64,000 nucleotides of DNA from NCBI RefSeq assembly GCF_058153355.1, contig NZ_CM177019.1. One strand, written 5' to 3'. The stretch's first letter is position 1. Each line of letters opens with the position of its first letter. This document shows, one piece after another, positions 1-3,000 of this stretch. The position numbers were made by a program.

Positions 1-3000
1 AAGGATCTTTACCGCGCCATAACGTGGCAAACGGCTCTTTCAGTTCAACCATCCAGACCACCCGTTATGATATCCGCCGCTTTCTCTGGCAGACTGTATA
101 AATCTTGTGTATCAGCATAATGTCGCGCATTTTCCGCCCAGGCCTGGCGCAATGAAGATTGCGTTAACGCTTTGCGTAAAATCTCATTCAATGTTTCCTG
201 GCGGAATGGCTCAACAATAGCCTCGCCGCAATTGGCGTCAACAATATAATGCGCATAGCCACAAACGGCTGTTGTTAGTACCGGTAATCCTGCAGTAATC
301 GCTTCCAGCAGCACAATTCCCGCCGCTTCCTGGTAGGCAGGATGCAGTAATAAATCCGCCGCCGCCATTAATTCCGAGACATCGTTGCGCCCCGAGAAGA
401 AGTGAACATTACTGCGCACGCCGCGTTTTTCTGCCAGCGCCTCAAATTTTCGCGGTTTATCCTGCCCAACAACATATAGCAATGTGTTGTGGCGCAGCGA
501 ATCCGGTAATGAAGCAAGTGCTTCAATGGAACGATCGACACCTTTACGCGTGAAGTCTGAACCGACCTGCAACAATAAATATTGTTGTTCTGTTATTCCA
601 TTTTTCTTACGAAAGCTTTCACGGCTATTGGCTGGCTGCTGGCTATATTTACGGTCAGGATAAATCCCCGGAGGCAAAATATGAAAACGCTCCGCTTCAG
701 TCTGATAATGTTTCTGGAAATCGGCGATTTGCTTGTCCGTCAGCATCAGCAACTGTGTCGGCTTGCCCTGTTCAAAGGTTGCCCGCTCAAAGGCGGCATA
801 ATGGCGATAACGTGACGTCAAGCGATAGAAAAAGCCTTTCTCCTGCGCCACTTTCTCGGCATAACAAACATCAGCGGCATAATAAACGTCCAGCCCTGGC
901 ATTTTGTTGAATCCAACGACTCTATCGACCGGATGCTCGCGTAAGTGTTTTTGCACCCAGGCAAAATACTCCGCGTTACGCCCGTGATTGGTATGCGACT
1001 TAACCGGCACTTTGATCAGTTCAAACACATCAGGGCATTCGCCTTCCCATGACTGGGCATAAACCCGAACATGATGCCCTCGGGCCGCAACTGTCTGAGC
1101 AATACGCATAAAATCGCGTTGCAAACCGCCAAAGGGAAAATATTTATATAAACAGAAAGCAACGATCATAACGACGTACCTGTCGTGGAGGATGGCAATA
1201 ATTTATCAACAGCAGCAATGACATCTGCCGCCGGAATAACCGAAAGATACATCTCATTTCGGTCACGCTGATCGCGTGTTGGCATTTCCCGGTAATCTCC
1301 CGCCCAGAATTGAATCATGTTATTTGACCAGGGACGCCAGAAAATATGGTCTGTTGCACCAAACAGCGATATCAGCGGCGTATTAACTGCAGCGGCAATG
1401 TGCGCCGGTGCGGAATCAACGCCAATAAACAGCTGCGCATGATCGATTAACGCACCAAGTTCCGGGAAGGTTACCTTTCCGGCCAACGCCGTTACTGGTG
1501 GCGTCTGGCATCCCTGGGCAATTTCATTGACGCAGGCCAGATCGTCTTTATCCGGGCCGGACGTCAGAACGACTTCATAGCCACGTGTATGTAAGGCATC
1601 AATCACAGCGGAAAACTTAGCGTTGTCCCAGCATTTGAAGATTTGCCGCGCGGTAGGTTGGATAACCACATAATTTTGTCCAACACCTGCGTGATCCAGT
1701 TCGCGACGCATTCGTTTCCAGCTTGCAGGCGGGTAACTCATTGTTGTCTGCTTCACCAACGATTCGAGACCCAGTGGCGTCAGCACGGATAAGTTACTTT
1801 CCACCACATTTCCACCCTGCAACGGCACCAGATGGGTGAAGCTTTTACGCCAAAAAGCAGACTGCCGATGATGATAATCCTGGGAAATTTTCACACGGGC
1901 ATTTAATAAGCGAACCAGTATAGCAACCATCCATTGATCGGTAAGATTGACGATAAGGTCATACTTATTGGCACGTAATACCTTGATGAGATGAAAAAAG
2001 TTGGAAATTTTCTCTGAGGCTTTTGCTTTTTTATTTTTTATGCCGTAGAGCGCGTTAATCTCTGGATTTTCAGACAGAATCGGGATGGTATCCTGATAAA
2101 GCAGCACATCGATTTTTGCGTCAGGGTAATTTTTTTTCAGCGAACTAATGACGGGAGTAGTTAATAACATATCCCCATGAAAACGCATCTTAATGAGCAA
2201 AATTCTTCGAAATGGCTTATCCACAAGTAACTCTTTTTGTTGAGATTATCCGATTAAGGTGAAGCAGAAAAAGCACGCTACCGCCCCAGGCTCAACAGCT
2301 ACCTGAATACTGATACCGTACTGATATTGACGCGCTAGTGTATCACTTCTTTCGCGGCAATCCGATCCGAATGATTTTTAAGCACATCGTTGTTTTTCAA
2401 TAAAGAAATCAATCAAATAAAATCATTAGCAACAATATTCTTTCACTGTTGCTCCGCGATTCCTTACTGCACGTACTGCGGAAATCAATGAATCGTATAA
2501 AAATACAAAAAAAGTATAGATGTTCAGCAAGAATTGGCGGGTAAATTGCTATTTAAGTCAAAAACGGGAAAAGTAATGGTAAAGCCACAGCTAAATACAT
2601 AGAATCCCCAGCACATCCATAAGTCAGCTATTTACTATGCTCGAATTGCTTTACACCGCCCTTCTCTACCTTATTCAGCCGCTGATCTGGATACGGCTCT
2701 GGGTGCGCGGACGTAAGGCTCCGGCCTATCGAAAACGCTGGGGTGAACGTTACGGTTTTTACCGCCATCCGCTAAAACCAGGCGGCATTATGCTGCACTC
2801 CGTCTCCGTTGGTGAAACGCTGGCGGCGATCCCATTGGTGCGCGCGCTGCGTCATCGTTATCCTGATTTACCGATTACCGTCACCACCATGACGCCAACC
2901 GGTTCGGAACGCGTACAATCTGCGTTCGGTAAGGATGTTCAGCACGTTTATCTGCCTTACGATCTACCCGATGCGCTTAATCGTTTCCTGAATAAAGTCG

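Follow-up and report, generated by a model that had tools for sequence, protein, structure and literature searches.

The waaQ leader carries a JUMPstart/ops element, very probably the RfaH recruitment site of the lipopolysaccharide core operon

Which signal lies ahead of waaQ, a gene of lipopolysaccharide (LPS) core synthesis, and does it place the operon under the control of RfaH? We examined this for a stretch of 64,000 nucleotides (nt) from contig NZ_CM177019.1 of NCBI RefSeq assembly GCF_058153355.1 (the window), in which a first-pass annotation had placed a JUMPstart element with its ops core on the minus strand at 2274-2312, in the leader of waaQ. Read on the minus strand, 2312..2274 is the 39-nt sequence CAGTATTCAGGTAGCTGTTGAGCCTGGGGCGGTAGCGTG. 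A cmscan search of the entire window against Rfam 15 returned two matches above the gathering score, one of which is JUMPstart (RF01707, a covariance model of 38 positions with a gathering score of 35 bits). The match covers exactly 2312..2274 on the minus strand and the whole of the model (positions 1-38 of 38), with 55.2 bits and an E-value of 6.4e-10. Thus, the sequence and the full-length family match bear the proposal out: the element is real, correctly placed, and of a kind already known from Rfam (RF01707), from the literature on ops and RfaH, and from the small RNA (sRNA) RirA.

The 12-nt ops sequence, GGCGGTAGCGTG, occupies 2285..2274 on the non-template (coding) strand of waaQ and has a perfect core; the 30-mer quoted in the first-pass annotation lies at 2303..2274. 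It satisfies the consensus GGCGGTAGnnTG, including the central bases C3, G4, G5, T6, A7 and G8, which form and present a DNA hairpin (PMC6391919). With base roles taken from the same source, G1 falls at 2285, C3 at 2283, G5 at 2281, T6 at 2280, G8 at 2278 and the pause position, T11, at 2275. A pattern scan of the 64 kb with GGCGGTAGNNTG, exact and with one mismatch, was compared with 100 shuffles. The ops site at 2285..2274 is the sole exact match; with one mismatch allowed, six sites were found including the exact one, where 3.0 were expected and nine of the 100 shuffles reached six. The five inexact sites (1649, 18657, 30542, 31399 and 56247) were rejected as ops elements because they occur at chance frequency, and at least one of them (31399-31410) lies inside an open reading frame (ORF) at 31219-31689, a gene for a phosphotransferase system (PTS) IIA component. 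No ORF of at least 20 amino acids overlaps 2274-2312 on either strand, and the coding sequence nearest to the motif is 1166..2224.

Upstream of ops, the element contains the JUMPstart stem, whose 5' arm CAGGU (2301..2305, minus strand) is given by the structure line of the Rfam alignment and whose 3' arm GCCUG (2287..2291, minus strand) was placed from that alignment and a comparison of copies. The arms form five standard pairs, the second being A-U in the window, and the base of the stem, with spacing read from the sequence, lies 11-12 nt upstream of T11.

The coding sequence that follows is waaQ (rfaQ; 1166..2224, minus strand), which encodes LPS core heptosyltransferase III. From its GTG start at 2224 it matches the RfaQ equivalog family NCBIfam NF007742 over positions 1-351 of 352 with 713.5 bits (cut-off 467). 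The second gene of the operon, waaG (45..1169, minus strand), is placed by the ORF list and by the RefSeq annotation of a collinear locus; beyond it the operon exits the left edge of the window, waaQ and waaG being its sole genes inside. On the other side lies the divergent gene waaA (kdtA; 2637..3914, plus strand; NCBIfam NF004385, 904.9 bits, cut-off 590), which bounds an intergenic spacer of 412 bp (2225..2636). The element shares the strand of waaQ and ends 49 nt before the GTG, upstream of a full-length RfaQ match that waaG follows, and it is divergent from waaA. It therefore does mark the orientation and the leader of the waaQ operon, as had been claimed. In the remaining untranslated leader (2225..2273, minus strand) a weak purine motif, AAGAG (2235..2231), precedes the GTG by 6 nt. 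G+C content is 39-41% across the spacer and into the 5' part of waaQ, against 50-54% in the surroundings.

We consider it very probable that RfaH is recruited to the waaQ (LPS core) operon at the 39-nt JUMPstart with its 12-nt ops. What the analysis shows is the sequence of the element, its position and strand, its place outside coding DNA, its conservation and the family to which it belongs; the biochemical steps come from the literature. Every base required is present, and the 39-mer is identical to that of K-12, where the RfaH biology was worked out. In published work waaQ is the first gene of an RfaH-regulated waa operon, and mutations in rho, nusG and hns suppress the loss of rfaH (PMC5449661). 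Both waaQ and rfb depend on RfaH by way of ops/JUMPstart (PMC6358824, PMC8745692), a dependence that for the waaQ operon is also supported by PMC5449661 and PMC6391919.

Transferred to this locus, transcription would start ~18 nt upstream of JUMPstart, from the predicted extended -10 element TGATACACT, and RNA polymerase would pause at T11 of ops (2275). The exposed non-template ops bases would form a two-pair DNA hairpin (C3:G8 and G4:A7) that presents G5 and a flipped-out T6; autoinhibited RfaH would recognise this hairpin on the paused complex, open, and bind the clamp helices of the polymerase, replacing NusG (PMC6391919). The RfaH-modified polymerase would resist pausing and Rho-dependent termination, and the refolded C-terminal domain of RfaH would, together with ribosomal protein S10, help to load ribosomes on a leader with a weak Shine-Dalgarno motif (PMC6391919, PMC8745692). 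Through anti-termination and ribosome loading, the whole of the long, AT-rich waa operon would be expressed. Nothing in the sequence speaks against RfaH recruitment at this site. As limits, a generic sigma-70 scan of 2100-2750 gave two weak sites, no more than in shuffles, and left the extended -10 uncalled, and rfaH is not in the 64-kb window. In K-12, rfaH lies ~200 kb away, and it would thus be expected outside the window.

Conservation within E. coli was assessed in 5440 records for the 39-mer and in 5426 complete genomes for a 551-bp piece around the spacer. Of the 5440 records, 4907 carry the 39-mer with 100% identity, and nearly all the others have it with 95% or more. The sole variant seen in the element is an A-to-G change at 2304 (M505 type), by which the second stem pair passes from A-U to G·U. 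Matches to the 551-bp piece occur in 5424 of the 5426 genomes, with 99.8% identity to 24 of them, and rfaQ and waaA are annotated on either side of the homologous DNA in 5415. Over this piece, strain 2013C-4282 differs from the window at a single position, 2496, far from JUMPstart.

The spacer itself occurs as two E. coli haplotypes; along its length, identity to the window is only 60-80% in 946 records, among them J53, a K-12 derivative that served as the reference for the K-12 haplotype. Identity to J53 is 100% (39/39) over JUMPstart, 76.5% over the 98 nt upstream of it, 65.3% over the 49 nt downstream, and 48.6%, with gaps, in the middle of the spacer (2411-2519). The J53 leader has its JUMPstart/ops in a like position and on the like strand, with a divergent waaA and the conserved extended -10. 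In contrast, the window carries the other, commoner haplotype, which is ~77% identical to that of K-12 over 412 bp and non-homologous to it in the middle. It has five T after ops where K-12 has six, and two changes in an arm upstream of JUMPstart that is considered below. The JUMPstart/ops of K-12 waaQ was reportedly described by Hobbs and Reeves in 1994 and by Bailey, Hughes and Koronakis in 1997.

E. coli genomes hold a median of 2-3 JUMPstart-like places. Sister copies were found between galF and rfbB, at a plasmid flippase/glycosyltransferase cluster and between galF and galE on a plasmid, each in the leader of a polysaccharide operon and on the same strand as that operon; all score above the RF01707 threshold (53-60 bits). 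In the aligned copies the similarity between operons is limited to the 39-mer, starting at CAGT and stopping at GCGTG. An rfb JUMPstart sequence has a 100% match in 2123 E. coli records. The copy in the galF-rfbB leader resembles that of the window in family (60 bits), in an identical ops, and in leader position and strand, and it is RfaH-dependent (PMC8745692, citing Wang et al. 1998). It differs in the loop, which is TAAA and not TTGA, and in its second stem pair, which is U-A, as in the plasmid copies, and not A-U, a compensatory double change. On plasmid p3575-NDM-5 a match to group II intron D1-D4 (RF02005, 186.6 bits; locus 231-456) lies ~2.5 kb upstream of the JUMPstart/flippase cluster and has no connection with the element.

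The element is also kept in other genera. A collection of species-representative genomes, scanned with AGCCTGGGGCGGTAGCGTG, yielded 61 loci, 36 of which have a WaaQ homologue 38-52 nt after ops. JUMPstart stands before waaQ in at least 13 genera: Escherichia, Citrobacter, Salmonella (represented by Salmonella enterica subsp. arizonae and diarizonae), Kosakonia, Shimwellia, Pseudocitrobacter, Cedecea, Silvania, Pluralibacter, Leminorella, Buttiauxella, Kluyvera and Intestinirhabdus. WaaQ protein similarity in other genera begins at residue 1 (tblastn), and the sequence GTGGA(A/T)AAGCC, preceded by AAAGAG, is conserved across genera. Together these support GTG 2224 as the start of waaQ, with a weak Shine-Dalgarno-like motif.

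The predicted extended -10 of the waaQ operon (TG-N-TACACT; 2337..2345, minus strand) does not differ between the E. coli haplotypes and sits 24 nt upstream of JUMPstart. Among the 38 distinct waaQ leaders compared, 34 have it as TGNTACACT or TGNTACAAT at a fixed spacing, and the remaining four have TGGTATAAT or TGGTACAAT a few bases further upstream. From this conserved motif we infer that the waaQ transcript starts at about 2331-2328, and published statements on RirA bound the start to 2346..2312. JUMPstart therefore probably lies inside a transcript made from this predicted promoter, consistent with the published RirA data, by which both RirA and the waaQ mRNA include it (PMC5736990). A literature search on waaQ promoter mapping returned reviews only. 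A 10-bp hairpin, AGCAACAGTGAAAGAATATTGTTGCT followed by AATGATTTTA, at 2428-2453 on the minus strand was scored as terminator-like by a scan; it was not counted into the element, as it lies upstream of the predicted promoter and the K-12 haplotype lacks it.

The sRNA RirA is reportedly 73 nt long and derived from the 5' untranslated region of waaQ, as stated by Klein et al. in 2016. It is reported to bind RfaH together with RNA polymerase. Its published description, an RNA that has its 5' end in common with the waaQ mRNA and includes both JUMPstart and ops (PMC5736990, PMC6358824), corresponds in the window to the stretch from ~2331 to ~2258; the DNA that would encode RirA is conserved.

Might the same leader also act at the level of RNA? 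In RNA folds, an upstream arm (AGUACG-G-UAUC-A-GU; 2309..2322, minus strand) can pair with 2284..2272, which covers ops RNA plus the first U that follows, around the JUMPstart stem. The resulting long hairpin ends at a U-rich tract, TTTTTCTGCTT (2262..2272, minus strand), that directly follows ops; in RNA folded from the predicted start, the nested hairpin ends directly at UUUUUCUGCUU. The leader could then be a terminator-like attenuator at which polymerase without RfaH would stop, letting go of a short transcript that may be the 73-nt, RfaH-titrating RirA, while RfaH-modified polymerase would read through. Such an attenuator would be a layer added to the DNA-level recognition of ops and would not replace it. 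We hold this to be possible, though on the unlikely side.

The folding energies point in both directions. The 73 nt from the predicted start would form an 18-bp interrupted hairpin of -20.3 kcal/mol in the window, with a z-score of only -1.21, and a like fold of the K-12 haplotype reaches -23.3 kcal/mol with a z-score of -2.47; the U-runs that follow are U5-U8. Folded as a whole, the 110-nt leader has no unusually stable global structure (z -0.20). The hairpin resembles intrinsic terminators and attenuators in standing directly before a U-rich tract and, in many leaders, in being preceded by an A-rich stretch. It departs from them in its interrupted, G·U-rich stem with a large internal stem-loop, and the consensus terminator scan of 2100-2750 did not call it.

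The comparison of the 38 leaders is likewise two-sided. A 20-pair structure is 89.2% paired over them, against 31-54% when the partners are slid by 1-3 columns; this figure is circular in that the structure was derived from the same 38 sequences. Moreover, these leaders were gathered with a 19-mer that contains the 3' arm of the hairpin, which fixes that arm as invariant, so that the conservation test is biased and its shuffle control uninformative. Several columns of the 5' arm vary only with pairing kept (GU 29/AU 9; CG 33/UG 5; AU 27/GU 11), and the pair just outside ops is GC in 29 leaders, AU in two and GU in one. Nearly all of this variation, however, consists of one-sided transitions, which a tolerance for G·U accepts automatically. 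At least six T among the nine nt after the base following ops are found in 30 of the 38. The rfb leader has neither a U-tract after ops nor a complementary upstream arm. Four waaQ leaders, of Citrobacter and Kluyvera types, lack arm and U-tract and yet keep JUMPstart and waaQ.

In the primary paper, RirA reportedly arises from processing and not from termination. Effects of RfaH at intrinsic terminators are weak (PMC6391919). We regard it as doubtful that in most enterobacterial waaQ leaders ops acts twice, its DNA recruiting RfaH and its RNA forming an attenuator that yields RfaH-titrating RirA. If it did, LPS core synthesis would limit itself through a feedback loop contained within a leader of ~70 nt, and a RirA-producing attenuator would explain the 3' end of RirA and tie the supply of RfaH to the output of LPS. 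The pairing of ops RNA with the upstream arm across many enterobacterial genera is no more than suggestive, and would be a small addition to the known picture.

A second proposal concerns the JUMPstart stem-loop itself (2305..2301 with 2291..2287), which might be an RNA hairpin that holds polymerase at ops and so gives scarce RfaH time to bind. The 5-bp stem is modelled by Rfam; its second pair differs between copies (A-U, G·U or U-A), and the other pairs are never broken. In the 38 waaQ leaders this second pair is AU in 27 and GU in 11 with no broken cells, the other stem pairs being invariant or one-sided. The distance of 11-12 nt from the stem base to T11 would equal that of classical pause hairpins, and conservation reaches 27 nt upstream of ops even though RfaH contacts only ops. 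On the other hand, the isolated 39-mer folds no more stably than its shuffles (z +0.32), so that the stem draws its support from covariation only, and the loop shows as much conservation as the stem, a sign of constraint on the sequence rather than a purely structural one. Artsimovitch and Landick are said to have noted in 2000 that the ops pause does not need JUMPstart. The pause has been described as stabilised by backtracking and as functional without JUMPstart in reconstituted systems (PMC6391919). We think a pausing role for the stem-loop possible but unlikely. Finally, that the match is due to chance or is a decayed, functionless relic is next to impossible: one-mismatch ops-like 12-mers do occur at chance frequency elsewhere in the window, but the strength of the Rfam match and above all the retention of the element across thousands of E. 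coli genomes within a diverging spacer and in a like position before waaQ in many genera refute such an origin.

For RfaH recruitment, the value of the element lies in annotation: it establishes on which strand the LPS core operon lies and where its 5' boundary is, marks the operon as RfaH-dependent, and supports GTG 2224 as the waaQ start codon. To the known biology of RfaH and ops it adds nothing.

Some further observations concern the spacer and the core locus. Between the haplotypes the mid-spacer (2411-2519) is essentially non-homologous and both ends of the spacer are conserved; the middle may be a recombination or replacement junction beside the variable core-type genes. In strain SW07163 an IS1 sits in this middle region and replaces the portion of the spacer nearest to waaA. 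Gene order in the best-matching genome is R3-like. An assignment of the LPS core type was dropped, given that the window holds only waaQ and waaG and that its spacer haplotype also occurs in CFT073.

Elsewhere in the window, yicC and yicG are separated by a 278-aa ORF (11846-12682, plus strand) without a counterpart in strain 2013C-4282, which is otherwise near-identical and has the two genes side by side; the position of the ORF presumably corresponds to that of dinD in K-12. Downstream of a 577-aa ORF (24550-26283) and upstream of yicI, a seven-gene sugar-utilisation island (26327-33269, minus strand) encodes a D-lyxose/D-mannose isomerase-like protein, a ROK kinase, two paralogous class II ketose-bisphosphate aldolases, fructose-type PTS IIC and IIA components, and a BglG/PRD-type regulator. 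In yicJ (35892-37331, minus strand), a gene for a glycoside-pentoside-hexuronide transporter, an in-frame stop at 36108-36110 replaces codon 408 of the ORF read from 37331 (...GWMLAYG*YDAAEKAQ...). The frame runs on for 71 codons past the stop to the normal end, and an intact gene of 460 aa is annotated in strain 06-00048; in the present strain yicJ has the appearance of a nonsense pseudogene or of a truncated allele.

The gene for tRNA-Sec, selC, is found at 37567-37657 on the plus strand (Rfam RF01852, 83.8 bits), next to setC (38301-39485) and with no integrase ORF adjoining. selC is a classic insertion site of pathogenicity islands. A type III secretion-related island extends over 42145-58640, its gene names being taken from the annotation of a collinear locus in strain 06-00048. 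It includes a SycD/LcrH-like chaperone, a YopB/SseC-family translocon subunit, an IpaD/SipD-like tip protein, the HilA-family regulator EilA, and an inverse autotransporter adhesin of 3128 aa (IatC / EaeX-Air type; 49254-58640, minus strand). The 24.6-kb type III stretch is covered to at least 80% in only 24 of the 5426 E. coli genomes, with best matches only ~92% identical.

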